Assembly (NCBI GenBank): GCA_951406725.2
Contig: OX597822.1
Span: forward strand, 106,144,001-106,208,000
Source: Octopus vulgaris
Taxonomy: Eukaryota
Length of the DNA stretch: 64,000 nt
Reading direction: 5' to 3'
Shown: piece by piece, positions 2,258-62,171 of the stretch
Position numbering within the stretch: the first letter of the stretch is position 1
How the letters are laid out: every line of letters starts with the position of its first letter
Program-made: the position numbers and the translations under genes
The notes under the pieces: model-generated
What the model was told of the DNA's origin: nothing
What the model saw: only the letters and a program-made list of their open reading frames with translations
The model's database searches: none

Positions 2258-2460
2258 ATTAATAGTTATCGCCAAGCTAATATGGTAGTCGATAAATATA
2301 AGACTAAAGCTGCCGCTGATTAGCTCTTCTTGGAGCTAATCAGCGGCAGCTGTAGTCTTATATTTATAGACTACTATATTAGCTTGGCGATAACTATTAA
2401 TATCCAGTACCGCTGCCGTAATCTCCTTTAGAGAGACTTAGAAATTTTAATATTTCTATT
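2257..2460 (+). mobile_element. 70-bp-arm hairpin element with tail
   Basis: Arms 2257-2326 / 2333-2402 with a 6-nt loop; ~60-nt tail into (TA)n. Confidence 0.65.
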
Positions 2461-2496
2461 TTATATATATGTGTGTGTATATATATATATATATAG

Positions 2497-5438: not shown

Positions 5439-6342
<904 letters not shown>

Positions 6343-6543
6343 ACAAAATTAGAGAATGGAGAAACATACTTAAATCAATAAAACATCAACTATCCGATGA
6401 TACTCAATCCATACTTTAATACACCATTACATAGGAGTAAAGGCAATATATAAAATGAAATGAGATATACAGTAATAGTAAAAGTAAAAAGATAAAGAGA
6501 TATAAGTAAAAAATTACAAATACAATATGCAAATAAATCAAAA

Positions 6544-6651
6544 CTGACAGCTGTTTCGGCAGTGAGGACAGTCATACCTCATTTAACCTATAAGCCATAA
6601 AGGCAGGTATAAATGAGGCATTAACAAAGATGCCCCACGGCCTCTTCAGAG
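6544..6651 (-). ncRNA. Hammerhead ribozyme motif with extended helix II (left arm copy)
   Basis: Reverse complement of 9698-9805. Confidence 0.65.
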
Positions 6652-6999
6652 AATTAAATTAAATTTGTTATAATAGTGAAAAATATTATATAATCATATA
6701 CATATAAATATAAAAATATAAAAAAGTAAAATATAAAAACTTATACATCATAATGCTACACTTGTATAATATAATACACATTTGTACAAAAAGGAAGGTA
6801 ACCAGAACAAAATAAAACAAAATATATAACAGTGTATATATAATATTAATAAGTACCGATATCATACATATTTAGCTAATAGTTTTTTTTATAAAAAAAA
6901 AAAAAAAGGCTAACACATATGGAGATGAAAAATAATAATAATTAAATCCGTGGTACAGTTCATAAAATTCTAAAGCTATAAAAGTTAATAAAAATTACT

Positions 7000-7033
<34 letters not shown>

Positions 7034-9316
7034 GTAATAATAATAAAAAATAATAAAAATAGATACAGTTAAGTTATCACCAAGTCCATCCTTCCAAGAT
7101 CGAAATAACTATGAGTTAAGAAATGCTGACCACTAGGTAAAGAAAATTTAGATTAATTCGATTGGCTATTGGTTTGAAATTTAAATCACAAAAGAAAATT
7201 ATACGGTTGGTTAGTCAGGGAACGCCAATATTCACACACGCATCTACAGATCAATCGCACATACACACATAGTTATATGTATATACATACACTTGTACAT
7301 ATACATAATCATAAGCAACAACTAACACTTAGATAAACAAATAGGGAAGCAACCATGCTAACACTAAGTCCTTCAAAATTATAACTGAGCCTCAATAACA
7401 AAAAAAAGAACCATCCATGCATTCTATAAAATATTTAATTAAGATATAAATGTATTTTTAAATATCAGTATGTTACTAATTCAGATAATTATTTCATGGG
7501 TAACTTAAAATTTATAACACCGGTTTGTTGCAGAGTAAACATACGGTTGTTAGGTTTATCGTAAGTTTGTTATGATTTAAAGTACGCTAAATTATAAAAT
7601 ATAAAATATAAAATATATTAATTTAGATATTATAAATAAGTCACTTATTAACTTAATAAATATAGTGCCAAAATATACCAGTTTAGGCAATAAAAAATAG
7701 AGGGGGAAGTATTAATGTAAACGCTTATTAGAACATCACAGAAATTTTAAATAAATTTTATATTATAAAGACTTAATATGAAAAGAGATAAAATAAATAA
7801 AAAGGAATAAATGTATTTGCCTTGTAATGTGTGATTTTTGAAGTTTTCCAATATTGCATAGTATATTGCAAAGTATATATGTATATCTTGGTTAGATACC
7901 TAGCTCTGGATAATGTAATGATATTGTATAATATGTAATATATGAGAGCCTTTTGTGAGTTTGGTGGGTTTAGGTTGAGATTATGGGTTTTTTGTATGTG
8001 CTGATTTGGAAGGTTTTTTGTTTTTTTTTTTTATTATATATTTGGTCTTTTTGTACTCACCTTAATTTGTATCTTATGCTATTCACTGATAAACCTTTTT
8101 CATTTTTTTCATTTTCTCATTTACATGCATTTTGCTTTATAATTGTTACCAGCTTCATATATTTAGTTTATATCTATAGTCCTCTGGATCTGTACTTTAA
8201 ACTATCCTTCCATACATATTTACTTTCAACAATATAAAATATATATATTCACTTTATTTATTTTTATTTATTTCCCATTTTATTGTAATATTATCAATAT
8301 TTGCATCTAGTCTTCTATTTATTTATTTATTTGCCTATTTAAGTGTGGATGTTTACATACATATCAAGTCATTTAATTTGTTACCTATTTATTCTTTACT
8401 TATTTACTTATACTGGTGTAGTTTTATACATACATATCTATCATTTATTTTTATTTTTATTTAATTTTAATAATATATGAATACATATATACTAGTTTGT
8501 ACTTATAATTATGTGTATAACCGTATTTATTCCTTCGTATTTATTCCTTTTTATTTATTTTATCTCTTTTCATATTAAGTCTTTATAATATAAAATTTAT
8601 TTAAAATTTCTGTGATGTTCTAATAAGCGTTTACATTAATACTTCCCCCTCTATTTTTTATTGCCTAAACTGGTATATTTTGGCACTATATTTATTAAGT
8701 TAATAAGTGACTTATTTATAATATCTAAATTAATATATTTTATATTTTATATTTTATAATTTAGCGTACTTTAAATCATAACAAACTTACGATAAACCTA
8801 ACAACCGTATGTTTACTCTGCAACAAACCGGTGTTATAAATTTTAAGTTACCCATGAAATAATTATCTGAATTAGTAACATACTGATATTTAAAAATACA
8901 TTTATATCTTAATTAAATATTTTATAGAATGCATGGATGGTTCTTTTTTTGTTATTGAGGCTCAGTTATAATTTTGAAGGACTTAGTGTTAGCATGGTTG
9001 CTTCCCTATTTGTTTATCTAAGTGTTAGTTGTTGCTTATGATTATGTATATGTACAAGTGTATGTATATACATATAACTATGTGTGTATGTGCGATTGAT
9101 CTGTAGATGCGTGTGTGAATATTGGCGTTCCCTGACTAACCAACCGTATAATTTTCTTTTGTGATTTAAATTTCAAACCAATAGCCAATCGAATTAATCT
9201 AAATTTTCTTTACCTAGTGGTCAGCATTTCTTAACTCATAGTTATTTCGATCTTGGAAGGATGGACTTGGTGATAACTTAACTGTATCTATTTTTATTAT
9301 TTTTTATTATTATTAC

Positions 9317-9350
<34 letters not shown>

Positions 9351-9697
9351 AGTAATTTTTATTAACTTTTATAGCTTTAGAATTTTATGAACTGTACCAC
9401 GGATTTAATTATTATTATTTTTCATCTCCATATGTGTTAGCCCTTTTTTTTTTTTTATAAAAAAAACTATTAGCTAAATATGTATGATATCGGTACTTAT
9501 TAATATTATATATACACTGTTATATATTTTGTTTTATTTTGTTCTGGTTACCTTCCTTTTTGTACAAATGTGTATTATATTATACAAGTGTAGCATTATG
9601 ATGTATAAGTTTTTATATTTTACTTTTTTATATTTTTATATTTATATGTATATGATTATATAATATTTTTCACTATTATAACAAATTTAATTTAATT

Positions 9698-9805
9698 CTC
9701 TGAAGAGGCCGTGGGGCATCTTTGTTAATGCCTCATTTATACCTGCCTTTATGGCTTATAGGTTAAATGAGGTATGACTGTCCTCACTGCCGAAACAGCT
9801 GTCAG
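9698..9805 (+). ncRNA. Hammerhead ribozyme motif with extended helix II (right arm of the large inverted repeat)
   Basis: ct CTGAAGA ggc..(85 nt, paired)..gcc GAAA cagctg TC ag; helix III palindrome ACAGCTGT; helix I is weak. Confidence 0.65.
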
Positions 9806-10362
9806 TTTTGATTTATTTGCATATTGTATTTGTAATTTTTTACTTATATCTCTTTATCTTTTTACTTTTACTATTACTGTATATCTCATTTCATTTTATA
9901 TATTGCCTTTACTCCTATGTAATGGTGTATTAAAGTATGGATTGAGTATCATCGGATAGTTGATGTTTTATTGATTTAAGTATGTTTCTCCATTCTCTAA
10001 TTTTGTAGTATTAATTTACGGTAATATTATTACCCTTACCCATTTAATACAATAGATGAACTGATTGCTTGACAATTTCTAACATCTATGTATTAATTTT
10101 GTTGGGTACCTATCTAGCAGTATATTGGATATATATTATCCCATGGTGGGTTGAATTTTCAACCCCTATCTCATTTTATAACCTATATATTTATATATAT
10201 ATTTATATATATATATTTATATATATATTTATATATATATATATATTATATATATATTTATATATATATATATTTATATATATTTATATATATATATATA
10301 TTATATATATATTTATATATATATATATTTATATATATATTATATATATATATATTTATATA

Positions 10363-12223: not shown

Positions 12224-12376
12224 GTTGCCTACGTGTTTTATCTATGAAATTCAGATCGACGCATGCCCCTCCGGGGGACACATTAATACACCCAGGTGAT
12301 ATACTACACTCCATATATTTTATTGCGTCGGGCTCTATAGAAATATCTAAAGATGATATAGTCATGGCAATTTTAG
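12224..12376 (+). CDS. KCNH2-like: Internal exon A of an Erg-type KCNH voltage-gated potassium channel; N-terminal half of the cyclic-nucleotide-binding homology domain
   Basis: ttgcAG acceptor and GTacgt donor, phase 1 at both ends. Encodes (G)[50 protein letters not shown](G), matching h[55 protein letters not shown]. Confidence 0.96.
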
Positions 12377-12455
12377 GTACGTATGAACTTCCTCCGGTAA
12401 ATATACATTGATTTTTACGTTTTGTATCTTTCGTTGTGTATTATTATAATACAGA

Positions 12456-19956: not shown

Positions 19957-20344
19957 GTGGAAGCGCAATGGCCCAGTGGTTAGGGCAGCGAACTCGCGGT
20001 CATAGGATCGCGGTTTCGATTCCCAGACCGGGCGTTGTGAGTGTTTATTGAGCGAAAACACCTAAAAGCTCCACGAGGCTCCGGCAGGGATTGTGGTGAT
20101 CCCTGCTGTACTCTTTTACCACAACTTTCTCTCACTCTTACTTCCTGTTTCTGTTGTACCTGTATTTCAAAAGGGCCGGCCTTGTCACTCTCTGTGTCAC
20201 GCTGAATATCCCCGAGAACTACGTTAAGGGTACACGTGTCTGTGGAGTGCTCAGCCACTTACACGTTAATTTCACGAGCAGGCTGTTCCGTTGATTCGGA
20301 TCAACCGGAACCCTCGTCGTCGTAACCGACGGAGTGCTTCCACC
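19957..20344 (+). mobile_element. tRNA-derived SINE family S1, inserted in the MULE remnant
   Basis: A-box tggcccagtgg and B-box ggtttcgattccc; 12-bp TSD agtgaatgtaaa (19945-19956 / 20345-20356). Confidence 0.9.
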
Positions 20345-21410
20345 AGTGAATGTAAAACACTGGGCAGGTGATGGGACATTTAAGTGCTTCCCAACTGTAT
20401 TTTATCAGTTGTACAAGCTTCATATTCAAGTGGGTTCATTGTGTGTTCGGAAATTGTTTGCATTACTTTCAAACAAAAATCAAGAAACTTACACCTGCCT
20501 TATTAATAAGCTAAATGAATTACGCCAAGGACTGAGCCCTGAAACATTATTAAGGATTTTGAAATAGTTCACATTAATAGCATTTTATCAGTGTTTCGCA
20601 CTGCTTCCATCTCGTTGTTGTCTTTTTCATCTATTTCAAAATGTGTACAGAAAAGTATGCGAATTTGGTTTTAAGGAAATATACCATCATGATAATGAGT
20701 TTAGCATTAAATCAAATGTTTTTTAACGCTGGTTTTTCTTTCTCCCGATGATGTGATTAACAGAATCGAAGATCTTGTAGGTGACGACGATCTTCCGCAA
20801 GAACTGGTGTCCTACTTTGAATTATCGTACATAGGATGCGCGCGAGGTAGAGGAATTAGACAACGAATACCTTCTTTATTTCCCATTGATAGTTGGAATG
20901 TCCGCTTTAGAACAGAATCGAATGTGCCTCGCACTAAAAACCATTTGGAGGAATATCACAACGCACACACATCCGAATATATGGAAATTAATTACTGCAC
21001 TGAAAAGGGAAGAACACTTTGCATAACTGAGAAAGGTTGAATTTAATCGAGGTGAGATCTGCGAGACCAAATGAAAGCATAAAGATATAAGCAAACGGCT
21101 TCAGATATTTATTGAGCGATGAAGACCCGAAAATAAGATGGATTTTTTACGAGAAATAGCTCGTAACCTTAATCATTTTTGAAGCTTTTAGTAATGTTTT
21201 TACATTTTACTGTATTTTATCTACATTCAACGTTATATCGTTTTCTAATATCGGGAATGAAATTACCAGGAATGAAATTGAATGGCAGTCAATTTACCGG
21301 GGGTTCAAATTACCGAAGTCAAAATAGCGGATTTTGAATTACCAAGAGTCACATTACAGGTCACCATATACATACATATATATATATATGTATATATGTA
21401 CATATACATA

Positions 21411-23557: not shown

Positions 23558-23741
23558 TTATGCAAGTCGCAGCTCGTGTACCGAGGCTCGTGCTCTTGGT
23601 TTCATGATAAAGGCGATGTCTGGTAACATCCATCAGTCGCGGTAGCCAGCTGAATGTTCGAATCAAATGGCTGACAGAAACACACACTTTTATATACAAG
23701 TGTGTACGTGTGATTGTGCATATATACATGTATGTGCGTAT

Positions 23742-24113
23742 GTGGAGGCGCAATGGCCCAGTGGTTAGGGCAGCGGACTCGCGATCCATAGGATCGCGGT
23801 TTCGATTCCCAGACCGGGCGTTGTGAGTGTTTATTGAGCGAAAACACCTAAAGCTCCACGAGGCTCCGGCAGGGATGGTGGTGATCCCTGCTGTACTCTT
23901 TCACCACAACTTTCTCTCACTCTTACTTCCTGTTTCTGTTGTACCTGTATTTCAAAGGGCCGGCCTTGTCACGCTGAATATCCCCGAGAACTACGTTAAG
24001 GGTACACGTGTCTGTGGAGTGCTCAGCCACTTACACGTTAATTTCACGAGCAGGCTGTTCCGTTGATCGGATCAACCGGAAGCCTCATCGTCGTAACCGA
24101 CGGAGTGCTTCCT
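23742..24113 (+). mobile_element. tRNA-derived SINE family S1
   Basis: Near-identical to the other S1 copies; TSD tatgtgcgtat(gt). Confidence 0.9.
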
Positions 24114-32695: not shown

Positions 32696-32861
32696 GTGAC
32701 TTCGACGTTTCGGCTTACCTGCTTCGTCAGATGATCTGACGAGCCCATCAAGCCGAAACTTTGGAGTTACTATTCGAATAAACGCACATACTCGATCTCC
32801 TTATAATTGCAGCCAAGTCTGCTTCAATTCCGTCTGTATTTGTTAGACTTAAATTTCTACC
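32696..32861. mobile_element. Micro fold-back centred next to hammerhead cores
   Basis: gtgacttcgacgtttcggctt...tcgtcagat g atctgacga...aagccgaaactttggagttac; CTGACGA..GAAAC occurs on both strands. Confidence 0.45.
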
Positions 32862-45530: not shown

Positions 45531-45927
45531 CTAGCAGTATCGCCCGGTATTGCTCGGGTTTGTAAGGGAAATAACTATATAAGTATTTTTAGAGATGTAA
45601 AGTATAATAGCCATCTCAATATGGCTAACCACAAAGTGGGGTGTTACTGTAGCTTTTTACGTTCTGAGATTTAATAATACATTTTTAGAGAGTTACTTCC
45701 CTTATATAATAGCAAAAAATGCATTAAAAATGGGAAAAATTGATGGTAATTTTTTTTTTTAATCGTAGACTCATCGTAGACGCGCGCTAATACCCAGAAG
45801 TGCTCGATGTGAATCACGACTATAAGATACCCGCTTTTGGTTAAACTGCACCGCAAAATGTGGGAGTAGTTAGGAATCTAAATCGTAGGAGACAGACACC
45901 ACACAACCTCACTTTTATATATATAGA
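45531..45927 (-). mobile_element. Non-autonomous Helitron, same family as 44879-45276
   Basis: Same termini; different internal module. Confidence 0.8.
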
Positions 45928-50806: not shown

Positions 50807-51169
50807 TTAGGTATATAAGCACATATGCACATATAAACATACATATGCGCATACGCATAATGTTACACATGCTTTCACACACTGATCAGTAGAAAACTAT
50901 AAAATTGCCGTTATTTTTATAATTTTTTTTTTTGACAGTTTTCAAACAATCTTTCAATTCAACAAGAGTTCTCTCACCTTGACCGTCGAAGTTTCAAACC
51001 ATACCCCAAAAATATGAAATATTCACAAATACGAACAGTGGCCACTGAAGCGCACCTCATTGCCTTCGTTGGCTAATGAAACCTGAGAACCAGTAACACC
51101 ACTATTACCCATCTTGTTTTTTTTATCAACATTCACTTCAATAACACAGAAAGTAGGATATTGCGCAAA

Positions 51170-51551
51170 GTGGAGGCGCAATGGCCCAGTGGTTAGGGCA
51201 GCGGACTCGCGGTCGTAGGATCGCGGTTTCGATTCCCAGACCGGGCATTGTGAGTGTTTATTGAGCGAAAACACCTAAAGCTTCACAAGGCTCCGGCAGG
51301 GATGGTGGTGATCCCTGCTGTACTCTTTCACCACAACTTTCTCTCACTCTTTCTTCCTGTTTCTGTTGTACCTGTATTTCAAAGGGCCAGCCTTGTCACA
51401 CTCTGTGTCACGCTGAATCTCCTCGAGAACTACGTTAAGGGTACACGTGTCTGTGGAATGCTCAGCCACTTGCACGTTAATTCCACGAGCAAGCTGTTCC
51501 GTTGATCGTATCAGCTGGGACCCTCATCGTCGTAACCGACGGAGTGCTCCT
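51170..51551 (+). mobile_element. tRNA-derived SINE family S1
   Basis: 12-bp TSD atattgcgcaaa. Confidence 0.9.
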
Positions 51552-53117: not shown

Positions 53118-53850
53118 ATATATATATATATTATATATATATATATATATATCCCAATCTCTCTCTTTCTCTCTCCCTTTCTTTCTATATCTCTTTCTCT
53201 TTCTCCCTCTCTCTCGCTCCCCCCACCCTATTTGTCTTTCTTTCACACTCTCTCTTTCTCTCTTTCTATATCTTCCTTAATTTCTTTTTGCTTTTATTTT
53301 TCTTTTATATTTCCAAAGCTAAGAATATCTTAGCATGTTAGTTCCGAGCAGTCCAAGACACAAACTCTATACTAATGAAATTAGCAACGTTCGTAAAGTT
53401 TACTTAAGTCAATGTTTTTCGAGTACTGGTTGGATTTGGTTCGTGTAAAGGAAGTAATTGAGCCAAAACTTGATTGGTAAAGAATTGACTAAAAGAAAGA
53501 GATATGGCGGGCGGAGGGAAGCGAAGCAATGTTTGTAAATTTGATTACAACTCATATTTGGCACATGGATGTGAAGGTTACATAACCTTCATTGTTTTTA
53601 TGTCAACTTTCATTTTCCTCTTAGAAATAATTCATTGAAAGAACCGCAGATGGCTGATACAATTGAAGTGCTGAAAGACAAACCCAGAAGTCTGTGTTTT
53701 GTCACCAATGGTGTGTTGAGTTCAATATCAATTTACTCTCAACGGCAGTCCGCCTCGTTGCAAAGTTACATTTAAAAAGAGTAGTATTGATCATCGTTGA
53801 AAGTAATATAAAATTTAAGGGTATTTTATTTATAAGTTTATAAGTTTCAT

Positions 53851-54083
53851 ATAGTGGTTGTATACTGTCAACACAACGTGACAGTCCCGTAAAGAGAATC
53901 ATGCCACCGCTATTTAGCCCTAGGAAGCATCGACGCTTCCTGTCGGCTTTGACACCTTTCCTGTGTCCTTATATTTGCAAAGGAGAGGCAAGCACCCCCG
54001 CCAGCTAGGATTAGCACCTGGAGACATGTTTCTGGGTCTTGCCTGTCATCAGTCCAGGGTAGTAAGTCCTTCTAGCTGAGATG
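53851..54083 (-). mobile_element. ~233-nt structured, hammerhead-containing non-coding element, copy 2
   Basis: Reverse complement aligns end to end with 5439-5670, with many substitutions that preserve pairing. Confidence 0.7.
54017..54058 (-). ncRNA. Type-I minimal hammerhead ribozyme motif (paralogue of 5462-5505)
   Basis: Minus strand reads cctgga CTGATGA caggcaagaccca GAAA catg TC tccagg; helix I cctgga/tccagg, helix III palindrome ACATGT. Confidence 0.8.
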
Positions 54084-54732
54084 GCTGCGACCGCTTTGCA
54101 AATATATAATATTTTCAATGAAATTTATTCACTGGTTACCAAAATTAGAAATATTGAATTTTTAGAAATTCAATATTTCTAACTTATAAGTTTCGTTGCT
54201 CAATTAAAATCTTCCTGAGGATAAATCTAGAAAAATTTAACCTCAGATCATTGTCTGTTAAACCCTACGAACGGAATGATGAGATCTGGGACTCAACTAC
54301 CTCAAACTAAAAATCTATGCAAGAAAAAAATCTACCTGAATTTGTTGCTGTTGTGTCTAAATACACTTTACAGTTTTACGGATGGAGAATACTTGGATAA
54401 TAAAAAGTTGATTATGGTTAATACATCATAGATGTATGTGCAGTGTGTGCGCATGTGTGTGTTTGTGCGGATGCGTGCATGTCTATGTGTATGGCTGTAT
54501 TTGTGTTAACTCTCTTAACGGAAAAGGTAAGTACAAGCGGCGGGAATTTCAGCTGTTTCGTTTCAGAACAAAAAATGGATTCTGTGAAACATATATGTGA
54601 TAAATATATGCTACATAACTGTAATATTCATTTAAATAAACACTTCATATATATATATATATATTATTTATTTATTTATATACTTATATGTATATATATA
54701 TTTATATTCATATATATATACACAAATATTTA

Positions 54733-58463: not shown

Positions 58464-58466
<3 letters not shown>

Positions 58467-58852
58467 TGGAAGCACTCCGTCGGTTACGACGACGAGGGTT
58501 CCGGTTGATCCAAATCAACGGAACAGCCTGCTCGTGAAATTAACGTGTAAGTGGCTGAGCACTCCACAGACACGTGTACCCTTAACGTAGTTCTCGGGGA
58601 TATTCAGCGTGACACAGAGAATGACAAGGGCCGGCCCTTTGAAATACAGGTACAACAGAAGCAGGAAGTAAGAGTGAGAGAAAGTTGTGGTGAAAGAGTA
58701 CAGCAGGGATCACCACCATCTCCTGCCGGAGCCTCGTGGAACCTCAGGTGTTTTCGCTCAATAAACACTCACAACGCCCGGTCTGGGAATCGAAACCGCG
58801 ATCCTATGACCGCGAGTCCGCTGCCCTAACCACTGGGCCATTGCGCCTCCAC
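58464..58852 (-). mobile_element. tRNA-derived SINE family S1
   Basis: Full-length reverse-complement copy next to (TA)n. Confidence 0.9.
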
Positions 58853-59371
58853 ATATATGTATGTAAGCAATACATAGTGAAGAAAGCTCCAATAGTAATA
58901 ATGGTAATTGTATAACAAGTACCCTGTTTATTCAGTAAGGCTGTTAATCATCATACGACAGGAACATCAACTTCCCTATGTTTCAATGGAACGTAAATTG
59001 TGTTTATTTCTTTAACGTGTATTTACAAATTCATGAACTCATTACATGAGTGAATCAAATAGCATTTGCATTGCAACTGATTCCATGCAGAACGCAATGG
59101 ATGGTTGATATTGCCTTAATTAAACGAATCTCAATATTATGAACCATCCTATTTAAACAGGGATGTAATGTATAACTAAATATATAAATATAAGTCACTG
59201 TTTTTTTTTTAAGTCAAAAGTAAACAGATGAATAATTATTTTTATATCAAAAGTATACCGTTTCATAATGTTTATCGAAAAGTTTCACATACAATTTAGA
59301 TATAATTATGCAATCGTTTTAATTTCAACACAAGTTCTCTAAGCAAATAACTGACATGAAAAATACACTTC

Positions 59372-61784: not shown

Positions 61785-62171
61785 TGGAAGCACTCCGTCG
61801 GTTACGACGACGAGGGTTCCGTTTGATCCGAATCAACGGAACAGCCTGCTCGTGAAATTAACGTGTAAGTGGCTGAGCACTCCACAGACACGTGTACCTT
61901 TAACGTAGTTCTCGGGGATATTCAGCGTGACACAGAGAGTGACAAGGCCGGCTCTTTGAAATACAGGTACAACAGAAACAGGAAGTAAGAGTGAGAGAAA
62001 GTTGTGGTGAAAGAGTACAGCAGGGATCACCACCATCGCCTGCCGGAGCCTCGTGGAACTTTTAGGTGTTTTCGCTCAATAAACACTCACAACGCCCGGT
62101 CTGGGAATCGAAATCGCGATCCTATGACCGCGAGTCCGCTGCCCCTAACCACTGGGCCATTGCGCCTCCAC
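61785..62171 (-). mobile_element. tRNA-derived SINE family S1
   Basis: 12-bp TSD gggcaaatacaa. Confidence 0.9.

Follow-up and report, generated by a model that had tools for sequence, protein, structure and literature searches.

We consider it probable that a non-coding unit of about 350 nt in the Octopus vulgaris genome is an animal non-LTR retrozyme, one that carries a variant hammerhead ribozyme and shows Penelope-type insertion. This reading is drawn from sequence. What is new is the family together with its C.A hammerhead variant; animal non-LTR retrozymes as a kind are already known, which confines the undescribed RNA element proposed in a preliminary description to the family and the variant. 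In the literature searched we found no such cephalopod family and no natural C10.1.A11.1 hammerhead, and either may be held in Repbase, Dfam, the supplement of PMC7229834, Lunse et al. 2017 or most subscription journals, all outside the search.

Two copies of the unit, 83% identical over 205 nt, lie in the window (the whole 64,000-nt stretch of contig OX597822.1 that was analysed) where the preliminary description had placed them. Its account of both as elements of ~232 nt did not hold, as they are cut-down members of a dispersed ~350-bp unit. The copies and related pieces are listed below.

53849 to 54164, minus strand: copy A (subfamily A1), 316 of the unit's 350 nt, 5′-truncated, ending at 3′ end point 1
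54160 to 54182, plus strand: inverted piece of the unit at the 5′ end of copy A (blastn and sequence)
54184 to 54194, minus strand: target-site duplication of copy A, 5′ side (11 bp exact; 13 bp with 1 mismatch)
53838 to 53848, minus strand: target-site duplication of copy A, 3′ side (11 bp exact)
54017 to 54058, minus strand: type I hammerhead motif of copy A, predicted cleavage after 54023
54094 to 54106, minus strand: long stem extending helix I, 5′ arm at its base, outside the range of the preliminary description
53970 to 53982, minus strand: long stem extending helix I, 3′ arm at its base (from the fold)
53851 to 53969, minus strand: hairpin cluster of copy A, bounded by the long stem and 3′ end point 1
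5441 to 5670, plus strand: copy B (subfamily B1), 5′-truncated, stopping at 3′ end point 1
5463 to 5504, plus strand: type I hammerhead motif of copy B, predicted cleavage after 5498
5671 to 6340, no strand assigned: (AT)n tract directly 3′ of copy B, the usual 3′ neighbour in the retrozyme family
2259 to 2463: family C fragment, direct at 2328-2463 (plus) and inverted at 2259-2326 (minus), with no hammerhead
45595 to 45655, minus strand: 3′-end fragment of family D, 62 nt, 84% identity

Copy A is 94% identical to a natural full unit (blastn) and differs from its subfamily consensus at 10 positions; copy B is 92% identical to a natural B unit, with 9 differences from its consensus. Both are likely inert insertions. 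The 233-nt range of copy A that was first described cuts off the 5′ arm of the long stem, whose 13 nt at 54094-54106 are a perfect complement of 53970-53982. Cut in this way, the sequence folds no better than its shuffles (z -0.4), whereas the full 316-nt copy reaches z -4.1; copy B gives z -3.4. A weak Rfam HH9 match at 2292-2361 was rejected as a hammerhead because it is a palindrome formed by the direct and inverted pieces of the family C fragment.

Searching the genome (2.8 Gb, 227 contigs) with both copies, as the preliminary description had advised, recovered a family of many dispersed members. The copy A query returned 2,145 first-look candidates and the copy B query 2,965, with 40 scored for each, and family C gave 3,010. 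A tight C.A hammerhead pattern, which leaves out family C, matched 1,461 times compared with 2 for the reversed control. The repeat is present in well over a thousand genome copies.

In natural copies the unit is ~350-360 bp long, non-coding, dispersed and joined head to tail, with lengths of 350-352 bp for A/B (from copy flanks), about 360 for the period of C, and 353 nt for D, the last a family found with a covariance model built in this analysis. The GC content is 0.42-0.46. Subfamilies A and B, 81% identical, are the ends of a subfamily ladder in which copies average 91-96% identity to their own consensus; the A/B, C and D lineages are 46-59% identical to one another. An older ~350-nt repeat, family E (loci L254, L257-L259, L262 and L264-L266), has copies 63-73% identical. 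It carries the same C.A hammerhead with an extended helix I, and many of its 1,342 first-look candidates end at one phase; no alignment of E to A-D was obtained.

The units examined have no terminal direct repeats around a distinct interior, and no coding frame is attached to the unit in the sampled copies. A tRNA-derived SINE was considered and found no support: ARAGORN found no tRNA-like head in 6/6 loci, a search that could miss decayed heads, and there was no Rfam match. The Rfam hammerhead models (clan CL00010) describe the same core nucleotides and three-helix layout, yet neither copy A nor a 2.6-unit copy gave a match at E values up to 5. Assembled contigs of 4/4 sequencing runs (four organism codes, only presumed to be RNA) cover parts of the unit, in a form in which ends and circles are not visible. 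A lead from loose contig ends, a seemingly shared 3′ end, was dropped as a flanking MITE at locus L051.

The hammerhead core is intact in 113/120 of the A/B/C copies that cover the domain. The family has C3 U4 G5 A6 N7 G8 A9, G12 A13 A14, A15.1-U16.1 and H17, and the strands CUGAUGA, GAAA and GUC were found in both window copies as first described, with the same predicted cleavage sites, 5498 (plus) and 54023 (minus). Family C instead has U3-A8, a core swap seen in 32/33 copies examined and in all 32 with an intact core; this swap has been reported active (PMC3088659). Helix I of the hammerhead also has a conserved internal loop, and loop 2 is A-rich and likewise conserved.

The C.A mismatch noticed in both window copies where G10.1-C11.1 is expected proved typical of the family. 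Positions 10.1-11.1 are C.A in 72/81 A/B copies with an intact core, a count in which 30 source loci had been chosen by a C.A pattern, and U-A in 7/81, likely through CpG decay. Families D and E also have C.A, and 31/32 C copies have A-U. The mismatched C of A and B lies within a CpG, one transition from a U-A pair, and its retention in the source lineages despite that proximity suggests that the mismatch is kept by selection. The same bases can alternatively be read as an extra base between 9 and 10.1, which is known in hammerheads (PMC4209133), plus a second extra base before G12. A U.U mismatch occupies the same place in helix II of the axolotl HHR_Amex2, whose dimer is reported to cleave well (PMC7229834). 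Perreault et al. give a precedent for a mismatch at 10.1-11.1 and report U3-A8 as active, and their screen rejected mispairs at this position (PMC3088659). A variant occurring more than a thousand times in one genome is missed by Rfam and would be rejected by the published screen, so hammerhead counts in animal genomes may be low.

Helix III is short and palindromic. Among 100 listed matches of the 1,461 to the C.A pattern, a hand count found a perfect palindrome in 73, in 8 spellings and lengths of 6, 8 and 10 nt; in the examined loci, a set enriched by the search patterns used, 122/137 motifs are palindromic. A palindrome kept through 8 different spellings points to cleavage as a dimer. In the two window copies helix III is ACAUGU (copy B) and ACUAGU (copy A), as the preliminary description stated. 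A 4-nt duplication in L096, L022, L023 and other A2/AB copies extends helix III to a 10-nt palindrome, which could form three pairs with a tetraloop in the monomer.

Individual changes in the window copies qualify several of the pairings first proposed. Copy B has the family-typical core, the C.A mismatch, a 3-bp helix II and a helix I of 7 pairs, the seventh of which rests on a private change; helix I otherwise pairs as described. Copy A has a 6-bp helix I, and in its helix II the C.A is followed by a private A.C mismatch. The A-U to G-C swap noted between the two copies is present, but a private G>A in copy A breaks the first helix II G-C pair and leaves 2 pairs, making this copy a poor test subject. 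In the outer helix, the end quoted for copy B rests on private changes. Three downstream hairpins occur in both copies, as claimed; their stems are identical there, so that this pair of copies holds no covariation in them and covariation comes from families C and D.

Across the family, selection on RNA structure, which the preliminary description had suggested from two copies, is supported for the whole ~350-nt unit by predicted folds and paired changes. Circular folds of the consensuses are far more stable than those of 50-60 shuffles (z of -9.0 for A1, -11.6 for A2, -9.8 for B1, -7.4 for C and -5.2 for D), and each of the five shows a long stem that prolongs helix I and hairpins arranged alike; the order in the 53851 to 53969 cluster is that of families A/B, C and D. 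Over the whole unit, using a structure drawn from a single consensus, we counted 9-10 two-sided changes when A1 is compared with B1, where the null expects 2.5, and 22-23 when B1 is compared with C, where it expects about 10; 0/2000 permutations reached either count. Such changes are much commoner when fixed than when private (Fisher p 2e-4 to 9e-12). Against this, changed pairs keep their pairing no more often between subfamilies than they do among private changes (p 0.11-1.0). In the hammerhead domain of 25 chosen copies, 94.1% of 524 cells pair and 10/21 pairs change on both sides, a result that related rows inflate; 10/500 shuffles reach the observed value and slid controls give 0-4. A sequence-based alignment of the four lineages retains 45/81 consensus pairs in all, with many C and D pairs broken.

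A satellite-like or DNA-level mobile repeat, with hairpins kept for DNA reasons and a vestigial hammerhead, scarcely merits credence: hairpins and palindromes do form in single-stranded DNA too, but the change from C3-G8 to U3-A8 and the re-spelled palindromes of helix III would be of consequence for hammerhead catalysis alone, all six consensuses give a more stable circular fold for the hammerhead strand than for its complement (only slightly so in A1), and variable 5′ truncation, fixed 3′ ends and duplications of variable length fit reverse transcription.

Insertion anatomy was taken from 120 loci (L001-L090 and L161-L190), of which 112 insertions were kept, two of these being halves of one event. 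The 3′ ends of 106/112 fall at two phases, with 48 insertions stopping at point 1 and 58 continuing for about 57 nt more, and 51/112 carry an inverted 5′ piece; both shares are biased, the sampled loci being the best matches to queries that end at those points. The fixed ends lie 172 (in A and B) and about 229 nt past the cleavage site, so the 3′ ends are not at the ribozyme cut. In family D, 23/27 insertions end at two matching phases. Variable 5′ truncation, partial tandems and (AT)n targets complete the picture, and this combination of partial tandems and inverted 5′ pieces is as Craig et al. describe for Penelope-like insertions (bioRxiv 2021.04.23.441226). Duplications of at least 7 bp flank 30/112 insertions, compared with 14 in a shifted control, and several lie inside microsatellites; clear cases outside microsatellites measure 8-17 bp, in addition to the 11 bp at copy A and 7 bp at L051.

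Locus L051 holds 2.6 units with three hammerheads at 351-bp spacing, the whole inside one 7-bp duplication within a MITE. A multi-unit copy within a single duplication inside another repeat likely arrived as a multimer. Other tandem loci are L083, L169 and L185. Tandem units of one insertion share non-consensus bases in 6/7 pairs: 5-7 in B, where the background is 1.2 per 200 nt, and 2-3 in C, where it is 0.14. Inverted pieces give a mixed result when compared with their own insertion, the partner ranking 2 to 33 in 10 pairs. Tandem arrays, a check that the preliminary description had called for, were seen in no long form among the 112 insertions, and most copies have fewer than two units.

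A Penelope enzyme is inferred as the partner from this anatomy only. The genome has many GIY-YIG matches (148/150 scored) and RT+GIY-YIG elements with intact 781-codon frames. We examined 30 GIY-YIG loci, another 30 from a second Penelope family, and 3 longer cuts, and in none was the unit attached as a terminal repeat. The unit copies that turned up there are separate insertions, and hammerhead pairs lying 2-3 kb apart had no RT frame between them. Penelope protein matches lie near copies in 3/90 A/B, 2/30 C and 4/30 D loci, and near a MITE control in 2/30; the cases inspected are nested or neighbouring insertions. Five Penelope protein queries had no match in the 64-kb window. According to a 2020 review (PMC7761336), animal retrozymes show no motif that points to a partner. 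One young RT+GIY-YIG element (L128:1745-4087 and L129:1664-4006) keeps its 781-codon frame intact in many copies; a second frame, of 330-360 codons, precedes it, and repeats bearing TGACGTC follow its stop codon in tandem.

In the mechanism that we favour, a multi-unit copy would be transcribed, and two neighbouring hammerheads would pair through the palindromic helix III seen in the copies and cut after GUC. Once the monomer is released, the predicted long stem extending helix I would keep its ends side by side, and it would be closed to a circle by a ligase of the host's RtcB type, the enzyme given for animal retrozymes in PMC7229834. Within the circle a hammerhead stands alone, and with only 2 bp in helix III and the C.A mismatch it likely cuts slowly, which would let the circle persist. 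A Penelope RT/GIY-YIG enzyme would nick AT-rich DNA, and copying would start at one of the two internal points where insertions are observed to end, 172 nt or about 229 nt beyond the cut. Reverse transcription would then cross the cleavage site and stop variably, sometimes after more than one unit, often adding an inverted 5′ piece. The case for the circle comes from the end-joining stem and from known relatives, because a linear uncleaved multimer gives the same insertions. In frogs, 1/9 retrozyme dimers is reported to have cleaved in vitro (bioRxiv 10.64898/2026.07.22.740005).

We offer more tentatively, as a possibility short of an even chance, that these are old, self-standing, viroid-like circular RNA parasites and not recent pseudo-LTR debris, with the fold of the entire 350-nt unit serving as a conserved signal that loads the Penelope enzyme at two fixed internal start points and a C.A mismatch that acts as a selected brake on self-cutting. 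How Penelope-like enzymes engage RNA and make tandem and inverted insertions is an open question (Craig et al. 2021). The family offers testable marks in its two fixed internal start points, a fold retained by lineages of only about 50% identity, and multimers that entered in a single event; were the parasite and brake reading true, the unit would provide a minimal natural substrate with which to work out how such insertions arise during Penelope reverse transcription.

It is unlikely that the unit is instead a non-autonomous derivative of Penelope whose template is a linear multi-unit transcript left uncleaved, with a hammerhead that trims precursors or is weak, and no circle. A linear multimer would yield the same permuted insertions of more than one unit, the mismatch could make cleavage very slow, and the non-consensus bases common to tandem units fit either template. 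That account, however, finds no long array among the sampled insertions to act as master, and in each of the four lineages the long stem is predicted to pair one end of the cleaved monomer with the other. Retrozymes related to it in coral, mussel and axolotl are reported to accumulate as circles (PMC7229834).

The other source that the preliminary description had named, a structured Penelope pseudo-LTR, fared worse than its suggestion of a retrozyme-like RNA, which gained support once the whole family was examined. Solo pseudo-LTRs would be the 3′ ends of 5′-truncated autonomous Penelope insertions, and we judge this very improbable here. They would show the same insertion anatomy, hammerheads are typical of them (PMC4209133), frog retrozymes are homologous to them (bioRxiv 10.64898/2026.07.22.740005), and a small share of copies was sampled. 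Yet in the sampled copies what precedes a full unit is the 3′ end of the unit itself and in no case a common sequence with an ORF, in head-to-tail units with a period of 350-360 bp, and Penelope ORFs near the copies are at the level of the control repeat. Animal pseudo-LTR hammerheads are also described as mostly minimal forms with G10.1-C11.1 (PMC4209133).

The retrozyme assignment is in keeping with described animal non-LTR retrozymes, such as those of mussel (350-390 bp) and axolotl (Rtz_331 and Rtz_353) (Cervera and de la Pena 2020, PMC7229834). The kind is marked by units of 150-450 bp, GC < 50% and target duplications > 4 bp. The octopus unit resembles the described retrozymes in its ~350 bp, GC below 50%, lack of a coding frame, type I hammerhead whose palindromic helix III is short, predicted circle with strong self-pairing, duplications exceeding 4 bp, and Penelope elements in the same genome. 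It differs in that its C.A is common to lineages 53-56% identical, with one lineage having A-U and U3-A8; in two fixed internal 3′ ends; and in copies mostly of less than two units with inverted 5′ pieces in place of long arrays. Expression and cleavage have been shown for the known animal retrozymes (PMC7229834), whereas the octopus unit is known from sequence alone.

With the pseudo-LTRs of EN+ Penelope elements (PMC4209133; Craig et al. 2021) the unit shares partial tandems, an inverted 5′-truncated copy, microsatellite targets, a short tail at one end (57 nt in the octopus unit and 30-40 bp in the pseudo-LTRs), the type I hammerhead and the U3-A8 variant. Unlike them, its sampled copies carry no RT/GIY-YIG frame, the element consists of nothing but the repeat unit, and in the motif helix I is extended and the G10.1-C11.1 pair beside the core is missing. 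Vertebrate retrozymes (Li, Clavereau, Pollet, bioRxiv 10.64898/2026.07.22.740005) are similar in their dispersed monomers, their handful of dimers and their co-occurrence with Penelope, and that preprint supports a Penelope origin for them; for the octopus unit, no homologous pseudo-LTR was found in sampled loci. Local tandem expansion from a terminal repeat is proposed for the vertebrate elements, whereas the 2.6-unit octopus copy lies in one duplication.

The window holds several other features. A near-perfect inverted repeat of ~1.5 kb (6331-7812 and 8539-10018) lies between (AT)n tracts, and each arm has a hammerhead-like motif with a long helix II (~6546-6650, minus; ~9701-9805, plus). 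Two small hammerhead-like motifs stand head to head at 32730 (minus) and 32736 (plus), as in inverted Penelope ends. An exon resembling the ERG/KCNH2 potassium channel at 12235-12390 (plus; E 1e-17 to hERG chains) indicates that copies A and B may lie in or near an ERG/KCNH2-like gene. A ~215-bp repeat with terminal inverted repeats, at about 640-790 and in loci L191-L220, is one that we take to be a mariner-type MITE, and one 24-nt motif of it has 1,381 exact genome matches. Another repeat, of ~390 bp, occurs five times (19957-20345, 23739-24112, 51167-51548, 58464-58855 and 61785-62171), its copies being 92-97% identical.
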